Positions 41,809-62,356 of a stretch of 64,000 bases of DNA are shown one piece after another. The notes beneath the pieces are model-generated. The model was not told the origin of the DNA. It did not search any database and saw only the letters and a list, made by a program, of their open reading frames with translations. Numbering within the stretch: the first letter of the stretch is position 1; each line of letters begins with the position of its first letter. The DNA lies in contig JBFMAD010000022.1 of the NCBI GenBank assembly GCA_040755855.1, positions 34,967 through 98,966 on the forward strand, read 5' to 3'. The translations under genes were made by a program, and so were the position numbers. The DNA comes from Planctomycetota bacterium. Its GTDB lineage: Bacteria; Planctomycetota; Brocadiia; JAADGH01.

Positions 41809-43638
41809 CTATCCCTTGAAGAAATCCCACAGCACCGCGCCGTCGGCGTCCTTCGGCACAGGGATGCCGAGGGCTGAAGCCAACGTCGGGGCGACGCTGG
41901 TGATCCGCGTCGGCCTCTCCCGCCGGTAGCCCCGCCGGACGCCCGGCCCGGCGATGACGAAGTAGGAGTCGTCGGAATGCTCGCCCGAATTGAGGCGCGG
42001 CCAGTCCCATGTCCCCCGCGCCTTCGGGTCGGGGTGCATCTTGAAAAACTCCTCCTTCGTCGGCTTCTCCGCATGGGCCGGGATGACGAAGATGTCCCCC
42101 GCGAAATCGCCCGCTACGCCGAGCTGCGCCGCGTCCTCGATGGGCAGGACGGCCTGGAAGACATGCCGTCCCTTCTCGTCCTTCATATCCAGCAGCGCGT
42201 CAATGAGCTGCGCCTTGATCGACTGGTATTCCTCGCTGCCCGGCTCGACGACGCCGTCGGGGAACCGCCCCTTCGTGTTGATGTAAATGTAATGATGGAT
42301 GGCGAAGGCCCTTGTGGGTTTCCCCTCCCCCACGAGACCCAATTGGCGCAGGATCGGGTGCAGCGGCGCATGCCCCCCGCCGCTGTAGTTCGTCGCCCCG
42401 CCGTGGTCGGAGACCATTGCAACCACGCCGTCCTTCCCCGCCGCCTCCATGACGGTGCGGACGATGGAGTCGCCGATGCCCATGAGGCGATCCCAGTAGG
42501 CCCACCCCTCCTCCGCGCGGGCGGGATCGTAAAGGGCGTGCTCCTCGTCTATCATGTACATGGTCAGGTGGTTCGTCCAGTCGGGACCGTGCCACTTGAA
42601 CATAAAGAGGTCCCACTCCTCATTATTCAGGACATACTCGGCGGCCTTGCGATACCAGTTGCCCATGTACTCCTGCTCCTGGAAGTAGGTCTCGATGTCC
42701 GAGGCGTTGCCGATGACCACCTGCTGGCGGGAGCACTGGATGATGTAAGGCCCGCAGTGTTCGATGAGCCTCGGCGCGAGGTTGGCCGGATGGGAGAAAC
42801 CTGCTGCCGGGTAGATCTCGCTCAGGTAGAGGTGCACTTCCATCCCATCGGGCGAGAGTTTGAGCAGCTTGCCGCTCACGTGGGCGTCCACCGGTCCCCC
42901 GTCGGCGGTGAAGGTGTGCCGCGCCCAGTCGGACCACTCGCCCAGCCGCACGGTGAAGAGCGGCGTCCTGGCATCCTTCGATGCAAGGACCGAGACGGCC
43001 TCGTACCCAGATGGTCCCTTCTCGCTCCGCCCGAACAGCGACGAGACTGCCTTGTATCTGCACGGCAGCATCCTCCGCCAGCGGGGGTTAGCCTCGGTGG
43101 GCATGATGGGCATCTCAAACTCGATCACGCCGCCGGTCTCCACGGGCTGGATGTGGGTCACGTGGTCGCCGTCGGGGATGTCGGGGTTGGTGGTGTAGGC
43201 CCGGGCCTCCTGCAGGGCGCGGATGGCGTAGTGCGGCCGGCCGTCCTCGCCGACGTGGATGATGTTGTCCTCGAAGCGCAGGGGGTAGGACTGAGTCCAG
43301 TCGAAGATGACCGACCGCTTCCCCGCACGGTGCGCCGCGCCCCAGAGCTGCTCGGCCTTGCAGTAGGTGGAGGGGAAGGCCTGGACCATCCGGCCCATCG
43401 GCGCGCCCGGCTCGGGCATCGCCATATTGCAGCCGTGCGCGGAGGGCGTCGCGCCGGTGGCCAGGCAGGCCCAGTTCGTCGCCGTCTCCATGGGATAGCA
43501 GGGCCATGTCTGGGTGACGCTGCCCCTCTCTATCAGCTTCTTCACCGTCGGCATCACGCCGCGCCGGACGAACTTTTCCAGGAACCACAATGAGATCGAG
43601 TCGAACCCGACGACCGCAAGTCGCTTAGCCTTTGCCAT
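41809..43638 (-). CDS. alkaline-phosphatase-superfamily protein, nucleotide pyrophosphatase/phosphodiesterase (NPP)-like
   Basis: LAVVGFDSIS (metal Asp), YPMETATNWACLATGATPSAHG (Thr nucleophile context), VSDHGG. ATG at 43638; GTG at 43650 is the track start. Confidence 0.65.
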   Translation of the reverse strand: MAKAKRLAVVGFDSISLWFLEKFVRRGVMPTVKKLIERGSVTQTWPCYPMETATNWACLATGATPSAHGCNMAMPEPGAPMGRMVQAFPSTYCKAEQLWGAAHRAGKRSVIFDWTQSYPLRFEDNIIHVGEDGRPHYAIRALQEARAYTTNPDIPDGDHVTHIQPVETGGVIEFEMPIMPTEANPRWRRMLPCRYKAVSSLFGRSEKGPSGYEAVSVLASKDARTPLFTVRLGEWSDWARHTFTADGGPVDAHVSGKLLKLSPDGMEVHLYLSEIYPAAGFSHPANLAPRLIEHCGPYIIQCSRQQVVIGNASDIETYFQEQEYMGNWYRKAAEYVLNNEEWDLFMFKWHGPDWTNHLTMYMIDEEHALYDPARAEEGWAYWDRLMGIGDSIVRTVMEAAGKDGVVAMVSDHGGATNYSGGGHAPLHPILRQLGLVGEGKPTRAFAIHHYIYINTKGRFPDGVVEPGSEEYQSIKAQLIDALLDMKDEKGRHVFQAVLPIEDAAQLGVAGDFAGDIFVIPAHAEKPTKEEFFKMHPDPKARGTWDWPRLNSGEHSDDSYFVIAGPGVRRGYRRERPTRITSVAPTLASALGIPVPKDADGAVLWDFFKG

Positions 43639-43895
43639 GCTCAAACTCACTCCTTACTCTGTCAGTATTCCTTGACGCCGTCGATGCCTGCAGCCCAAGC
43701 GCGCTTTAATATCATTGCGAGGCCCGCGCCTCGTCGTCGCCCGAAACGGAGACTCCGAGCAATGACAAGTACACAAGATAACATCATGTTACGAAGTGCC
43801 GTTTCAATATGAAAGCCCCTTCCCATCCCTTGGGAGAGCGTGGAGATGCCGCTTCGACCATCCGTCGGGCAAATTGTCCAGCCCATCTGATCATG

Positions 43896-44563
43896 GCTAT
43901 ATGTTAGCACTACCATATCGCTACAGAAACCCCCGAACCCACAATAGGGAGGGCCCGATTGTTGCGGGAGATGGGGGAGTCTGTGGCGCCGCGTTCTCCG
44001 GGCCTCGCGGCAGCAACGGCGCCGCCCGGCCTCGACCATGCTGGATAGGTATTGACCTTGATATGTTGGCATAAACATATCACCGTACCCCCCCCGGCCT
44101 CTTCGCCCACGCCGCGCTTGCGCCGGCCGATGAGGGGACCCGGTGCGCCGTCTTTTTTGGACCACGCGGCGGCGAGGGGGCCTCCATGCTTCAGCCCTGC
44201 AAGGCTGGCATCCATGCCGATATATTGGCAAGAACATACCACTGCACAAATAACCATTATCTCTCCCGACTGCCGTCCCACCCCGCGAGATCGCGTATGG
44301 CCGCGACGCCGCCCGCCCTGGGGATCGTCGCTGCGAGGATACCGAGATACTTCGACTGCGACGGACAGCAGCGACGCCGATATGTTAGAACGAACATATC
44401 AGTGCAGTAACGCCAAGGAACCTTCCGTGCCCAGCCCGCATCCCGCGAGACCGGGAGCGACCGATGCGGCGCGCTCTCGGAGCTTCGTCGCTGCGACGAT
44501 ACCGACATATGCCAGCCATGCGGGGCCGGTATTGACGCCGATATGCTGATGCGAACATATCAG
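43896..44563. repeat. phased array of five ATATGTT-N6-AACATAT palindromes, period 159-162 bp, in a diverged tandem repeat
   Basis: Sites at 43899-43918, 44061-44080, 44220-44239, 44380-44399 and 44541-44560. Shared blocks one period apart: GGTATTGAC at 44049/44529; CGTCGCTGCGAsGATACCGAsATA at 44326/44486. Confidence 0.8.
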
Positions 44564-44577
44564 CCCAGAAACACCCA

Positions 44578-45216
44578 TCAGAGGGTCCCCTTTCCGCGCG
44601 GTTTCCCGTAACGCCCCGCCCGAAGCTTGTCTTTCAACTGTCTGACGCCGTCTCTGATGATCTGCAGCGCGTGGACCGATGGGTTGTTCCCGATGTGGTC
44701 CCGCTCGCCGCCCAGGGTCCAGAGGACCTCTCCTGTCTTCACATCCACACAGCGCGACTCGAAGGCCACGACGGATTGATTCCAAGGCATCCAGCCGCTT
44801 GTGTGGAACTTAGTTGCGCGGCCGACCACCACCGCGTCTACTTCGAGGACCGTCCCGAACGCACCGACATCGCTCCCATCGAAGCGTCCGGTCTGGGAGA
44901 GATTATGTTTGGCCAGGCGCTTATACACCTCACCCCGCCCCACGACGGTGTACCGCCCAGTCGAGGCGAGAAATTCCGCCAACCTGTTTGGTATGAGATC
45001 GCTTCCACCCGTTAGCTCGATGGCCCTATTCTCCTTGGTCGCCTTGGCCATGTAGTCGTCTGGTTTCCACTCGAAGTCAAGAACGGCGATCTTCTTTATC
45101 CTCTCCTGGTCCACGCTCCCCGGCGGCGCCACCGTCACCTGGGCCAGACATCCCGACACGAGAAACATCGACAATAGACAAAATGAATTTCTTTCGGCTG
45201 CTCCCCGGTTTGCCAT
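44578..45216 (-). CDS. lipoprotein, CsgG/LpoB-like fold family
   Basis: MANRGAAERNSFCLLSMFLVSGC (lipobox), IAVLDFEWK..., LEVDAVVVGRATKF...RCVDVKTGEVLW. Paralog of 52921..53532. The track start at 45234 is TTG. Confidence 0.6.
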   Translation of the reverse strand: MANRGAAERNSFCLLSMFLVSGCLAQVTVAPPGSVDQERIKKIAVLDFEWKPDDYMAKATKENRAIELTGGSDLIPNRLAEFLASTGRYTVVGRGEVYKRLAKHNLSQTGRFDGSDVGAFGTVLEVDAVVVGRATKFHTSGWMPWNQSVVAFESRCVDVKTGEVLWTLGGERDHIGNNPSVHALQIIRDGVRQLKDKLRAGRYGKPRGKGTL

Positions 45217-45344
45217 TTCCAGCCCTCGCTTCAACCGTATTTCCTTCCGAACCCGTACGCTACCATCCTACAAAAAATCCGACCCATGCCAAGAGAAAAT
45301 AGGCTTGAGAGGAGGATGGAAGTCTTTTTGCCGTCGAAATGCCA

Positions 45345-45374
45345 TTGACGCGGCGCGGATTGGTTTGGTATGAT
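45345..45374 (+). promoter_or_regulatory. putative sigma70 promoter upstream of lpxD
   Basis: TTGACG (45345-45350), 18-nt spacer, TGgTATGAT extended -10 (TATGAT at 45369-45374). Confidence 0.4.
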
Positions 45375-45426
45375 GCGTTCACGCGCAGGCCGCCACATCC
45401 GCACATTCTGCTCGGAGGGAGAGGCG

Positions 45427-46446
45427 ATGGAATTCACCGTATCGCAACTCGCCAAGAAGGTCCAGGGCGAACTCATCGGACCCAGCCTCACCATCATCAC
45501 AGGCGTCGGCAGCCTGCGCGGGGCCCGCGAGGGCGATATTGCCTTTGTGAAAGACGACCGCCACGTCGAGGCCGCCGCCGACTGCCGCGCCTCTGCGTTG
45601 ATCGCCCATCGAAAGATCGAGGCGTTCAAGGGCCCTCAGATCATCTCCGAGAACCCGCACCTGGCCTTTGTTGCCGTTGCAAACCTGTTCCTCGCCGGGA
45701 AAGCCCAGCCCCCCCCCGGCATCCACAAAACCGCCGTCATCGCCCCAACGGCTACCATGGGGCGGAACGTCGCCATCGGCGCCCATGTCGCCGTCGGCGA
45801 ACATTCGGTCGTCGGCTCCAACGCCGTTGTTCATCCCAACGTTACTATCGGGGATTACGTCAAGATCTCCTCCGACGCCCTCATCTATCCCGGCGTCGTG
45901 ATCCGGGAGGGGACGCGCATCGGCAAGCGGGTGATCATCCACGCCAACAGCGTGATCGGCGACGATGGGTTCGGCTACATCCAGCACGAGCGAAAGCATG
46001 TCAAGATCCCTCAGATCGGCACGGTCAAGATCGGCGACGACGTCGAGATCGGCACGTGCGTCACGATAGACCGCGCGGCCCTGGACGCGACGGTCATCGG
46101 CGACGGCGTCAAGATAGACAACCACAGTCACATCGCCCACAACGTGGAGATCGGCGAGAATTCCATGTTGATCGCCTTTGCCAAAATCGCCGGGGGCGCC
46201 AGGATCGGCAGGAACGTCATCATCGCCGAGGATGTGGGCATCACCGACAACATCACCATCGGCGACGGCTGCCTCATTGGCGGGGGGTCGAAGGTCTACA
46301 AGTCCGTCAAGGCCGGCGAGGTCGTCTGGGGCTGCCCCGCCAAGCCGATGCAGCTCGAAAAGCAAATTCAGGCCATCCTCAAGAAACTCCCCGAGATGCG
46401 CGAGACCCTCCGGCGACTGGCCAAGGGGCCGAACGCGGCGGAGTGA
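45427..46446 (+). CDS. lpxD: UDP-3-O-(3-hydroxyacyl)glucosamine N-acyltransferase
   Basis: MEFTVSQLAKKVQGELIG...GDIAFV... followed by a long left-handed beta-helix hexapeptide region (IGAHVAVGEHSVVGSNAVVHPNVTIGDYV...). Confidence 0.85.
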   Translation: MEFTVSQLAKKVQGELIGPSLTIITGVGSLRGAREGDIAFVKDDRHVEAAADCRASALIAHRKIEAFKGPQIISENPHLAFVAVANLFLAGKAQPPPGIHKTAVIAPTATMGRNVAIGAHVAVGEHSVVGSNAVVHPNVTIGDYVKISSDALIYPGVVIREGTRIGKRVIIHANSVIGDDGFGYIQHERKHVKIPQIGTVKIGDDVEIGTCVTIDRAALDATVIGDGVKIDNHSHIAHNVEIGENSMLIAFAKIAGGARIGRNVIIAEDVGITDNITIGDGCLIGGGSKVYKSVKAGEVVWGCPAKPMQLEKQIQAILKKLPEMRETLRRLAKGPNAAE

Positions 46447-46452
46447 CCGGCT

Positions 46453-46866
46453 ATGAAGTCGCACACGGAGTACCTCTGGTTCAACACCAAGACGAAGCGG
46501 GAGTTCATCAACATCACGGAGAAGGTCGAGGACGCGCTGGCGAAGAGCGGCGTCCAGGAAGGCATGGCTCTGGTGTCGGCCATGCACATCACCGCCGGAG
46601 TGTATGTAAACGACGATGAGCCGGGGCTCTTCCAGGACATCGAGGACTGGCTGCAGCAACTCGCCCCCGAGGGTCCCAACTACCGCCACCACCGCACGGG
46701 CGAGGTGAACGGCGATGCGCACCTGAAGAGCCTGCTGGTGCATCATCAGGTGGTCGTGCCGGTCACGGAGGGTCGGCTGGACCTGGGGCCGTGGCAGCAG
46801 ATTTTCTACGCGGAATTCGACGGCCGCCGCCGGAAACGGGCCATCATCAAGATCATCGGGGAGTGA
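46453..46866 (+). CDS. yjbQ: YjbQ/UPF0047 family protein (secondary thiamine-phosphate synthase-like)
   Basis: [40 protein letters not shown]...GDAHLKSLL...[22 protein letters not shown]. Confidence 0.8.
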
Positions 46867-52291: not shown

Positions 52292-52319
52292 CCTGGTCTC
52301 CATTCAGAACCGCGAAAGG

Positions 52320-52432
52320 GATTTTCGATTTGCGATTGCCGATTTTCGATTGACGGCCCTTCTCCTCTTGCGATCTTCGTGCCGATCTTTTCCCAATCCA
52401 CCATCGCCAATCGCAAATCCAAAATCCAATTA
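52320..52432. repeat. inverted pair of heptamer tracts (GATTKNC)x5 ... (CMAATCS)x5
   Basis: Left gattttc gatttgc gattgcc gattttc gattgac. Right ccaatcc accatcg ccaatcg caaatcc aaaatcc, whose reverse complement reads gattttg gatttgc gattggc... Confidence 0.75.
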
Positions 52433-52691
52433 TAGCCCGTTTGACGTTGCGGTCAAGGTAAGAGTCTCCACGGGGTGTTTTTTCTAAGGTCAGACCTTCT
52501 TAACTAACTGTAAAAACATCATTTAAGGCGTAACTTATTACAGATTTGCCAATGTTATCCCGTTTTCCTTGCGCATTCGAACGGATTGTCAGAGTTGCAC
52601 ACATATGTCCTTGTATTATAATAAGTTACCTATTACCTATACCTGTTATATGTATTTGCCTGTAAAAGGTGCGCCTGCGTCAAGAATCGTG

Positions 52692-52719
52692 TTGACACCG
52701 GCCGGTGGGGAACGATAAT
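52692..52719 (+). promoter_or_regulatory. putative sigma70 promoter upstream of the 52921 lipoprotein gene
   Basis: TTGACA (52692-52697), 16-nt spacer, GATAAT (52714-52719). The predicted ~200-nt leader contains the 52753-52834 hairpin element. Confidence 0.4.
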
Positions 52720-52752
52720 AAGGGCCGGGATGATTGTTGAAAAGGCCCCTGC

Positions 52753-52834
52753 GTTGTCATCCTGAACGAAGTGAAGGATCTCAACCTGGCGAAGGGTCGA
52801 GATTCTTCCCCCGCCTCATGGCGAGAATGACAAC
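52753..52834. repeat. REPIN-like hairpin of the widespread GTTGTCATYCT...AAGRATCTC type
   Basis: gttgtcatcctgaacgaagtgaaggatctcaacc versus the reverse complement of the right arm, gttgtcattctcgccatgaggcgggggaagaatctcgaccc. Confidence 0.65.
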
Positions 52835-52920
52835 ATTGGCCAGAATGGATTTTTCAACAGCCCTCCGGATGTCGGGGGCAGTGGACGCATGGTTCCGGCA
52901 CAGGTTCGAGGGATGAATGC

Positions 52921-53532
52921 ATGAAACGCATGGTGATGTTCCTGGCGCTCGCCGTCTGCACGGGCTGCGGTGGCGCGGCCCGGTCCAATGTCCAGATCAA
53001 CCCGCGATTTGAAGCCTATCAAATCCATCGCGTCGCCGTCCTGCCGTTTGAGGGGGTGCCGGCGGAGCGGGAGATCGTGGACCACGGGTGGTGGTTCGAG
53101 GGGCACCATTTCAACAACGGCGAGCTCGTCAGCGACATGCTCTCCACGGAGATGATGGCCATCCCCTCGTTCGAGTTCCTTGAGCGCTCGCAGATTCAGA
53201 AGATCCTCCAGGAGAAGGACCTCTCCATGACCAACCTCGCCGCCGAGAAGAGCAGCGCGGAGATCGGCCAGCTCCTCGGGGTGGACGCCATTGTCATGGG
53301 GAAGGTGACGAAGTTCCTTCGCACGTGGAGCCCGCCGCTGCACTACGGCTACGGCCTGTGCTTCTCGGCGCGGATGGTGGACACGAAGACGGGGACGGTC
53401 TTGTGGTCGGCCATGGTGGATCGCGGGGGCGGAGGGCTGGACGTTGTGGGTGCGGCGCGGGAGGAGTGCGCCGGCATCGCCCGCGAGCTCAAGGCCCGGC
53501 TGTCCCACGGTCCCGCAACAGGAACCAAGTAG
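52921..53532 (+). CDS. lipoprotein, CsgG/LpoB-like fold family (paralog of 44578..45216)
   Basis: MKRMVMFLALAVCTGC (lipobox), VAVLPFEGV..., LLGVDAIVMGKVTKF...ARMVDTKTGTVLW. Confidence 0.6.
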   Translation: MKRMVMFLALAVCTGCGGAARSNVQINPRFEAYQIHRVAVLPFEGVPAEREIVDHGWWFEGHHFNNGELVSDMLSTEMMAIPSFEFLERSQIQKILQEKDLSMTNLAAEKSSAEIGQLLGVDAIVMGKVTKFLRTWSPPLHYGYGLCFSARMVDTKTGTVLWSAMVDRGGGGLDVVGAAREECAGIARELKARLSHGPATGTK

Positions 53533-60638: not shown

Positions 60639-61504
60639 CTTGGTTCGATGGTTTCGCTTGATGGGGGTCGGGAGTCTGCGACCGTCTCGGGCCGTGAATG
60701 AAATCGGCCGAAGACAAAACTGCCGAGAAAGACCACAATCACGAGGACAAAGCCGGCGATGGTCAAGCAAGCCACCTTCCGCCCGTGGGTGATGTCGGCC
60801 AGCCGCACGTGCACGAGCGCGCAGTAGATGGCCCACGCCACGACGCCGACGACGATGATCGCGTCAGGCGGCCAGCCGAGGGCGACCGCGCTCCCGCTCT
60901 TGGCCCAGACGATGCCGAGGATCAGGCCCAGGGTGTATAAGGGGAACCCGATCAGCGTGGACCTCTTCGCGGTGCGATCCAGCGTCTCCAGCGACGGCAG
61001 CCGGGCGATGAGCGGCGCGAAGAGCTTAGACTTCAGCCGTCGCTCCTGGGTGAGATACAGGATGCTTGCGGCGAAGCCCACGGCGAAGAAGGCAAAGCCG
61101 AGGAAGATGGGGATCGCGTGGAGGGCCGACCAGAGGGCGTTCAATCCCTCCGGGGCCTGGTCACCCCGGCGGGCCAGGGCCGCCGCCCCCGCCGAGAAGA
61201 CGACCAGCAGGGGCAGGAGATATGCGCTCAAGGCAGTGAGTTTGTAGTAGCACGCGACGAACAGCCCCACCAGGGCGATGCACCAGAGAAAGAAGAGCAC
61301 CGTCTCGGACAGTCTGCCGACGGGTATCCCGCCGTACCGGACGGCGTGGACGATGAGGACCAGCGTATGGGCGGCGAAGCCGCAGATGAATAGGGCGCGG
61401 ATGAGGCCCTGCCGGAGGCGCTGCGGATGCCGTACGCCCGCGACGGCCAGGGCCGTGCCCACCGCGTAGAAGATCGCTGCGAGGATGGGCAGGATCAGGT
61501 CCAT
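60635..61504 (-). CDS. cytochrome c assembly family protein (CcsA/HemX-like) upstream of hemA
   Basis: 8-TM protein with the FAAHTLVLI...WSALHAIPIFLGFAFFAV...FPLYTLGLILGIVWA pattern. Position matches hemX of hemAXC operons. Confidence 0.65.
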   Translation of the reverse strand: MDLILPILAAIFYAVGTALAVAGVRHPQRLRQGLIRALFICGFAAHTLVLIVHAVRYGGIPVGRLSETVLFFLWCIALVGLFVACYYKLTALSAYLLPLLVVFSAGAAALARRGDQAPEGLNALWSALHAIPIFLGFAFFAVGFAASILYLTQERRLKSKLFAPLIARLPSLETLDRTAKRSTLIGFPLYTLGLILGIVWAKSGSAVALGWPPDAIIVVGVVAWAIYCALVHVRLADITHGRKVACLTIAGFVLVIVVFLGSFVFGRFHSRPETVADSRPPSSETIEPR

Positions 61505-61759
61505 CGGCAACCTCCCAGGAAAGTTCGTAAGGCCAAGAGATGATTATACGTTACGACTGCCCCCGATGCAACGGGAATCCTGCCGGTTCCACGCCCTTTG
61601 CGCGCCTTGCGAGAGACGCCTTGTCTGTCATTCCCGCCCTGCGCAGACGCAGGGGGAGTTTTTCCGTGCACTAAGTGTCCGAATGAGGTATAATTTGTTT
61701 TAGGCATGTCCTGCAATGCGGACCTGCCGCGAGACCAAAGACTTCTCGGGAGGCGGATC

Positions 61760-61996
61760 ATGACGGTTACAGATCGAATCGAGATCAACCCTCGCGTTCT
61801 CATGGGCAAGCCCATCATCCGAGGCACACGCATCCCCGTTGAGCTGATCCTCCGCAAACTCAGCGAGGGGGCGTCGGAGTCCGATCTCCTGGACGCCTAT
61901 CCGAACCTGCGCCGCGAGGATATCCAGGCCGCCATGGGATACGCCGCCGATACGTTGGCCCATGAGGAAACATTGATCCTTAAACCGACCGAGTAA
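61760..61996 (+). CDS. DUF433 domain protein (putative antitoxin)
   Basis: GGAGG RBS; IEINPRVLMGKPIIRGTRIPVELILRKLSEGASESDLLDAYPNLRREDIQAAMGYA. Confidence 0.75.
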   Translation: MTVTDRIEINPRVLMGKPIIRGTRIPVELILRKLSEGASESDLLDAYPNLRREDIQAAMGYAADTLAHEETLILKPTE

Positions 61997-62002
61997 CCCC
62001 GA

Positions 62003-62356
62003 ATGCGCTTCCTCGCCGACGAGAGCTGCGACTTCGCCGTGGTTCGGGCCTTGCGAGACGCCGGCCACAACATCCTTGCCATCTGCGAAACCAAACCGAG
62101 AGCCGACGACGAGGAGGTCATCCGTCTCGCTCTCGACGACCAACGCATCGTGCTTACCGAAGACAAGGATTTTGGCCAGTTGATCTATGCCCATGGGAAG
62201 ATGACGCTTGGCGTTATCCTGTTGCGATTCCCCGCTTCCGCCCGCCCCCTGCTGCCGGATGCCGTCAGCGAAATGATTAACCGGCAAGGCGAGAATCTGA
62301 AGGGGGCCTTCGTTGTGGTCCAGCCCGGCAGGACCCGCATCAGCCGAACTTTGTGA
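62003..62356 (+). CDS. DUF5615 PIN-like nuclease (putative toxin)
   Basis: MRFLADESCDFAVVRALRDAGHNIL...DEEVIRLALDDQRIVLTEDKDFGQL. Lies 6 nt after the DUF433 gene. Confidence 0.7.
   Translation: MRFLADESCDFAVVRALRDAGHNILAICETKPRADDEEVIRLALDDQRIVLTEDKDFGQLIYAHGKMTLGVILLRFPASARPLLPDAVSEMINRQGENLKGAFVVVQPGRTRISRTL

Follow-up and report, generated by a model that had tools for sequence, protein, structure and literature searches.

The window analysed here, a 64-kb stretch of a Planctomycetota genome (contig JBFMAD010000022.1), is mostly ordinary chromosome, with lpxD, a purF-like gene, aroA, prfA, hemA/hemC, an RND efflux pump, a sulfatase and others. On crude gene calls its largest gap is, as a first-pass annotation made from the sequence alone had claimed, the spacer between the start of an AlkP-superfamily/NPP-like phosphodiesterase gene and the stop of a CsgG-like lipoprotein gene, both on the minus strand. 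This spacer carries five copies of a palindrome, one in each unit of a diverged tandem repeat, and the features of the region are as follows.

41809..43638, minus strand: AlkP-superfamily / NPP-like phosphodiesterase gene (PF01663); lies downstream of the array in its own reading direction; 260 bp separate box 1 from the start codon
43850..44610, unstranded: diverged five-fold tandem repeat with a ~160-bp unit (families D1-D3, spacing 159-162 bp); its last unit enters the 3' end of the lipoprotein gene
43898..43919, unstranded: ModE-type box 1, TATATGTT-agcact-ACCATATC; two mismatches, the most degenerate copy
44052..44057, plus strand: TTGACC hexamer, possible -35, 17 nt upstream of the ACATAT in the right arm of box 2; from sequence reading
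44060..44081, unstranded: ModE-type box 2, GATATGTT-ggcata-AACATATC; exact
44219..44240, unstranded: ModE-type box 3, GATATATT-ggcaag-AACATACC; two mismatches, both transitions
44325..44339, unstranded: second, GC-rich palindrome, TCGTCGC-T-GCGAGGA, inside unit 3->4 (D3, I6)
44379..44400, unstranded: ModE-type box 4, GATATGTT-agaacg-AACATATC; exact
44485..44499, unstranded: second, GC-rich palindrome, TCGTCGC-T-GCGACGA, one period after the 44325 copy (D3, I6)
44532..44537, plus strand: TTGACG hexamer, possible -35, placed relative to box 5 as TTGACC is to box 2; from sequence reading
44540..44561, unstranded: ModE-type box 5, GATATGCT-gatgcg-AACATATC; one mismatch; its end is 17 nt from the lipoprotein stop codon
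44578..45234, minus strand: CsgG-like lipoprotein gene; its stop abuts unit 5; lower GC3 (0.73); an orphan in the protein database

Conserved arms in a diverged tandem repeat

A pattern search for ATATGTT-N6-AACATAT places the five copies at 43899, 44061, 44220, 44380 and 44541, with 1, 0, 2, 0 and 1 mismatches and a spacing of 162, 159, 160 and 161 bp; scored as the 22-mer GATATGTT-N6-AACATATC, boxes 1-5 carry 2, 0, 2, 0 and 1. These positions, this spacing and the 6-nt centres (agcact, ggcata, ggcaag, agaacg and gatgcg) are those first described, and they were recovered by direct reading of 43400-44900, by a repeat finder and by the pattern search. No sixth 22-mer with up to three mismatches was found in the 64-kb window (chance expectation 0.02).

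The ~160-bp units stand head-to-tail. In the repeat finder output and in the five-unit alignment that the first-pass annotation had proposed, they show homology over their full length yet are diverged, with a mean column identity of 66%, and Tandem Repeats Finder does not call the array because its units are too diverged. The arms are the most conserved part: mean pairwise identity is 0.875 over the 16 arm columns, against 0.44 in the columns outside arms and centre and 0.42 in the 6-nt centre. The arms are thus conserved as had been claimed, but only two of the five copies are exact. An AT mutation bias does not explain this conservation, since the non-arm columns with an AT consensus are less conserved (0.36) than the non-arm columns taken together. 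None of 100,000 composition-matched resamplings of the other columns reached the arm value (P < 1e-5), and the arms therefore appear to have been kept by selection rather than by base composition. Fixed arms around a free centre would be the signature of selection for binding by a symmetric dimer at every copy, and because the half-sites of every copy are individually maintained, each site presumably binds a regulator dimer. Alignment and resampling also agree with the earlier proposal of an old tandem duplication in which the palindrome was kept while the rest decayed, and we read the array as a probable old five-fold duplication of a ~160-bp non-coding unit. The near-constant period may mean that few indels have occurred since the array arose, and the two mismatches each in boxes 1 and 3 may reflect decay.

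Two details of the earlier description had to be corrected. The copies of GGTATTGAC, given there as one period apart, begin at 44048 and 44528 and are three periods apart. The sites had also been placed on one face of the helix; with 10.5 bp to the turn, each site is rotated by 0.14-0.43 turn relative to the next, and same-face phasing is therefore not established.

The array region also contains other dyads. The GC-rich palindrome TCGTCGC-T-GCGA(G/C)GA, followed by GATACCGA(G/C)ATA, occurs in units 3->4 and 4->5 and is absent from the others; it might bind another protein or be a remnant. A further palindrome, TAACAT-C-ATGTTA at 43779-43791, lies between box 1 and the AlkP-family start; it has the AACAT/ATGTT half-sites of the boxes in reversed order and does not follow the period of the array.

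The stretch is non-coding, since its ORFs, with a GC3 of 0.53-0.70 where neighbouring genes have 0.85-0.89, lack both the strong GC3 signal of this genome and, for the eight array ORFs searched, any Pfam match at E<=1. No frame-conserved peptide was found among the array ORFs, in line with the earlier view that the array does not encode a repeat protein, and the decaying pseudogene that had been named as the counter-case finds no coding signature here. Both of these readings were rejected on the low GC3, the lack of Pfam matches and the lack of any plasmid DNA match of note, blastn of the array against plasmids having returned nothing relevant. A small-ORF reading was dropped as well, because ORFs from the ATG inside each box share only box-encoded residues. 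ARAGORN found no tRNA or tmRNA in the window.

The palindrome resembles ModE operators

All five copies are dyads of ~22-24 bp in which 8 bp separate the TATGT and ACATA half-sites. In the MG1655 sequence itself, the E. coli modA operator reads CGTTATAT-TGTCGCCT-ACATAACG, with an N8 centre, and in this frame the window consensus is CGATATGT-TnnnnnnA-ACATATC(A/G). The published E. coli ModE consensus is ATCGNTATATA-N6-TATATANCGAT (PMC545781). In M. acetivorans the ModE motif is RTTATGT-N8-RCATAAY, which is needed for binding by EMSA (PMC12327845), and the window site differs from it at one position per half-site. The array thus has the dyad frame of the operators of E. coli ModE, Rhodobacter capsulatus MopA/MopB, M. 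acetivorans ModE and the C. jejuni ModE-like regulators; the last of these lack the metal-binding (Mop) domain and control mod and tup (PMC3417520). Since frame and half-sites are shared with known ModE sites, the palindrome would be a member of a known operator class, and we regard the five copies as putative ModE-family operators, or Mo-boxes, a known kind of site. The dimeric DNA-binding protein that the first-pass annotation had offered as one reading is thereby supported and can be given a family, that of the ModE regulators.

Known ModE operators lie at mod, tup, anf, vnf and moa promoters, mostly single or paired and overlapping the promoter of a Mo/W-related operon. There is precedent for several in one intergenic region: the M. 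acetivorans vnf-anf intergenic region has four ModE motifs (PMC12327845), and Rhodobacterales modA promoters have two boxes 44-47 bp apart. At seven such loci (L120, L125, L156, L160, L162, L171 and L184) the box 44-47 bp upstream is a weaker one that overlaps a conserved TAACGCTTG, and paired Mo-boxes are therefore common there. The present array differs from these in having five sites at a regular ~160-bp period derived from tandem duplication, in having no Mo/W gene within 64 kb and in lacking a recognisable promoter overlap in most units. We found no description of a five-fold 160-bp ModE-site array in the literature. The earlier statement that no such element had been described thus fails for the site, which is of a described operator type, and stands for the array: a five-fold 160-bp array uncoupled from Mo/W genes is new, and so far known only in this genome.

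The same site at regulator and transport loci of other genomes

The exact 22-mer was scanned for in 185,579 species genomes, giving at least 120 loci, of which those listed comprise 57 high-GC and 63 low-GC ones. Among the matches listed, half are high-GC, mostly from Rhodobacterales and Rhizobiales, and at the high-GC loci the site lies 10-18 nt upstream of the start codon of a gene whose product begins like ModA. By tblastn, a homologue of modA, tupA or modE-N starts within 400 bp of the site at 47 of the 57 high-GC loci listed (modA at 40, modE-N at 38) and at 2 of the 63 low-GC loci listed; most low-GC matches are chance or fall in coding sequence.

One of the loci comes from the same MAG as the window's closest relatives (84-87% aa identity). 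At this locus (L133) the exact 22-mer stands ~30 nt after the stop of a gene for a 116-aa ModE N-domain protein (TIGR00637, E 4.6e-24; PF00126) and ~90 nt before a tupA-like gene (NF041772, E 5.5e-75; PF12849). Three further loci (L235, L236 and L237) encode regulator homologues that are 72% identical, and have the gene order and box position of L133 with 0-1 mismatch in the box; L235 shares its sample of origin with another relative of the window's AlkP gene. The array palindrome is therefore the same sequence as an intergenic site at modE/mod/tup loci of related genomes. Beyond the box, alignment of the array units with the tupA operator regions showed no homology.

At three of these modE-N/tupA loci the box sits in a larger dyad, with a T-run ~10 nt upstream and an A-run ~10 nt downstream (L133 3000-3060, L235 975-1035, L237 530-590), which could also serve the regulator gene as a bidirectional terminator. 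Of the downstream part of this dyad, only a weak echo (CAGAAAC) is seen in the array units.

More distant homologues of the regulator (45-55% identity) lie inside mobA/mobB-modABC-moeA or fdh-fdhD-moeA-moaA clusters. Among them are ModE-N-only regulators of about 112 aa (L240 and L241-L243), found in mobA/mobB-modABC-MOSC-moeA and fdh-fdhD-mobB-moeA-moaA clusters with no TATGT-N8-ACATA box within 5 kb. Box specificity is therefore clade-limited, and these distant regulators presumably recognise some other operator. On a Clostridiales contig (L005, 3225-3260), a small gene pair is preceded by a TTGACA-like hexamer and then a near-identical palindrome, AATATGTTCTTGAGAACATATT; this is probably an unrelated operator whose likeness to the box is coincidental.

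A lineage-specific array away from Mo and W genes

The 64-kb window contains no modE, no mod/tup gene and no Mo/W-enzyme gene, and the regulator's presence in this genome is therefore assumed from relatives. No Mo/W transport, cofactor or enzyme gene has its promoter at the array; the flanking AlkP-family and lipoprotein genes have no known link to Mo or W, and no regulator, recombinase, partition or cas gene was found in the window near the array.

Closest to the window is a Planctomycetota MAG (JAADGH01), with 87% aa identity in the AlkP-family protein and 84% in LpxD. AlkP-family homologues are widespread, and the ATG and Shine-Dalgarno sequence of the window's gene are conserved with one relative locus (L001), which confirms the start. 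In this MAG and three further relatives, neither array, box nor lipoprotein gene was found at the AlkP-gene loci (L001-L003, L233) or lpxD locus (L055), where synteny with the window extends only over genes downstream of the AlkP gene. The check for conservation in relatives that the first-pass annotation had called for therefore has a split outcome: the palindrome recurs at modE-tupA loci, and array, spacing and synteny do not at the AlkP and lpxD loci. Exact-protein look-ups with the window's proteins returned no other assembly. Two-site pattern scans of genome, metagenome and viral contigs gave only unrelated AT-rich tandem repeats and repeat proteins, with the proviso that exact-pattern scans could not find diverged arrays; one candidate similar array (L008) was rejected as an ordinary high-identity tandem repeat.

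A word-indexed protein search found no homologue of the lipoprotein outside the window. Because array and lipoprotein are absent from the relatives' loci and the latter has no outside homologue, both appear to be lineage-specific, at a synteny breakpoint. Inside the window, a second CsgG-like lipoprotein gene (52921-53532, plus strand) encodes a protein 26% identical to the array-adjacent one; the 618 bp before it (52304-52920) are free of genes and of ModE boxes. The last ~11 codons of the array-adjacent gene (RYGKPRGKGTL, 44578-44610) fall outside the region alignable with this paralogue and align with what follows the box in the other units; array DNA may have supplied the 3' end of the gene. 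Farther along, an 870-bp gap (60837-61705) is followed by an adjacent DUF433 / DUF5615 gene pair (61706-62356, plus strand), a typical toxin-antitoxin-like module.

An array that is unique to this genome, placed at a synteny breakpoint beside an orphan gene of low GC3 and with two degenerate boxes (1 and 3), might be a relic, that is, a tandemly duplicated fragment of a ModE-regulated promoter region with no present function. We consider this quite unlikely. Neutral decay would have eroded the arms along with the rest, and their identity of 0.875 against 0.44 speaks otherwise; a free centre with fixed arms is the pattern of selection, not a sign of recent origin. A functionless relic is accordingly disfavoured by arm conservation, though less so for the degenerate boxes 1 and 3.

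The lack of a nearby Mo/W gene makes a different role a real possibility, in which the five operators titrate a ModE-type regulator and set the threshold or steepness of mod/tup derepression with no adjacent transcript controlled. The model for such a sink is the E. coli datA locus, a cluster of DnaA boxes in about 1 kb that titrates DnaA. Like the array, datA gathers about five sites of a single regulator into some 1 kb of non-coding DNA, at a distance from regulated genes; it serves a different protein, and its sites are neither palindromic nor evenly spaced. Five selected sites with no Mo/W gene within 64 kb, sites conserved one by one in a way that suggests additive benefit, and an array in which no promoter is called would all suit such a sink. 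Against it, the array is absent from relatives and was found nowhere else in the collections scanned, and we know of no natural ModE decoy, so that we hold this role to be unlikely. A broader version, a natural transcription-factor sink or phased nucleoprotein array that would act in regulator buffering or as a Mo/W-switchable roadblock between the two genes, seems to us improbable to the same degree.

Promoters, hairpins and recombination sites

A promoter and terminator scan of the array called nothing: no sigma-70-like promoter was reported, and the TTGAC hexamers were not called. The boxes could still belong to a tandem series of five plus-strand promoters repressed by Mo/W (TTGAC-N17-ACATAT), in which the operator would cover spacer and -10 and each promoter would drive a short non-coding or antisense transcript, the last one entering the lipoprotein gene in antisense. 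TTGACC or TTGACG does precede ACATAT by 17 nt in units 2 and 5, and a stem followed by a T6 run (44153-44158) lies ~70 nt after box 2. Known operators offer parallels, since that of E. coli modA has a -10-like hexamer inside the box and the Rhodobacterales box stands, as described above, just upstream of the modA start codon. The possible -35 is missing from the other three units, however, and no T-run occurs in the other four, which makes tandem promoters a weaker alternative; the inter-box segments are also without shared structure (z-scores near 0) and have no Rfam match. We therefore rate such promoters as rather doubtful. Tandem sRNA gene arrays with one regulated promoter per unit, such as NsiR1 and PrrF1/2, likewise repeat a unit in which the regulator site keeps its place, but the present array has no conserved promoter, terminator or RNA structure per unit.

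The first-pass annotation had offered a tandem family of structured RNAs as its second reading. This was rejected, together with an sRNA family, for want of an Rfam match and of a promoter or terminator per unit. An Rfam scan of 42000-46500 at E<=10 gave no match in the array and only two chance matches outside it, and in four of the five units shuffled sequences fold as well as the inter-box segment. In the alignment fold the box hairpin is the only shared structure, and its changes are not compensatory. This leaves the hairpins themselves as 8-9 bp stem-loops in a minus-strand lipoprotein-AlkP transcript or in single-stranded DNA, for instance with a role in processing or stability. The two flanking genes share the minus strand, with no terminator between them, and three transitions in boxes 3 and 5 would give G.U pairs on that strand. 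A bias of three transitions towards one strand is nevertheless expected by chance in about a quarter of cases, the two mismatches of box 1 are true ones whichever strand is read, none of the five arm substitutions is matched by a compensatory change, and at modE-tupA and modA loci this sequence serves as an intergenic operator. We see little likelihood that the palindromes act as hairpins.

Recombinase sites, the other half of the dimeric-protein proposal in the earlier annotation, fared worse. Inverted arms around a 6-bp centre have the geometry of tyrosine recombinase core sites, one that is common to many dimeric regulators. However, a Pfam scan of roughly 45 window ORFs found no recombinase gene and a single transposase gene, of the IS200-like Y1 type, at a distance of 35 kb. 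What separates the sites is homologous non-coding DNA repeated in the same direction, with no cassettes or invertible segments, the arm order GTT-N6-AAC is the reverse of that in attC and dif, and the sequence is already accounted for by the ModE box. Site-specific recombination of this or another kind is thus highly improbable. The Y1 transposase gene itself (PF01797; 9066-9779, minus strand) encodes 237 aa, longer than a typical TnpA and possibly RAYT-like, and no palindromes matching it were seen near the array.

Other classes of repeat were also rejected. CRISPR arrays have short identical repeats, unrelated spacers of 21-72 bp and usually cas genes; the 'spacers' here are about 138 bp and mutually homologous, and the window has no cas domains. 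Centromere and MITE readings fail on spacer homology and missing partner genes. The F-plasmid sopC-type centromere, with tandem units of one short inverted repeat each, resembles the array in its head-to-tail units with one palindromic protein-binding site per unit, but has a period of 43 bp, near-identical units and adjacent parA/parB-type genes. Also dropped, on geometry, arm order or missing partner genes, were attC, dif, shufflon, MITE ends with target duplications, REP/RAYT, parS, the sigma-54 promoter, and CRP/FNR, Zur, Fur and LexA boxes.

A model for metal-dependent occupancy of the spacer

The reading that we prefer, with a probability of roughly 0.55, is that the array consists of candidate ModE-family operators on an old tandem duplication and serves Mo/W-dependent control of transcription across the spacer. 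The regulator would be of the ModE family, a molybdate/tungstate-responsive protein with a LysR-type winged helix, and in this planctomycete clade probably the short 116-aa form, which has the ModE N-terminal domain only. When Mo or W is sufficient, regulator dimers would occupy up to five sites over 0.65 kb, from the lipoprotein stop to the AlkP-family start, and this occupancy would repress or roadblock transcription crossing the spacer, namely read-through or the output of local promoters toward the AlkP-family gene on the minus strand. As the most economical function we infer a Mo/W-dependent occupancy that blocks minus-strand transcription into this gene. As a side effect, the array could sequester a sizeable share of a low-abundance regulator. 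It would probably have grown by unequal recombination between neighbouring boxes.

Two features set the locus apart, namely five apparently selected operators in a 160-bp tandem array and the lack of any Mo/W gene within 64 kb. An apparently unclassifiable repeat thereby becomes a testable object, with a named regulator family, a 22-bp site, and molybdate and tungstate as candidate ligands. Even if the array were a relic, it would still be a clean example for recognising orphan operator arrays. If it acts as a sink, the free regulator concentration would be buffered, and this would shape the threshold of tungstate and molybdate uptake. More broadly, the comparison extends the ModE box to Planctomycetota, where it appears to be paired with a Mop-less ModE-N regulator and a gene for a tupA-like (tungstate-type) binding protein. 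If functional, the array would offer a rare natural example either of tandem duplication multiplying an operator, which would place unrelated genes, such as that for the AlkP-family enzyme, under metal control, or of a decoy array for a bacterial metal regulator.
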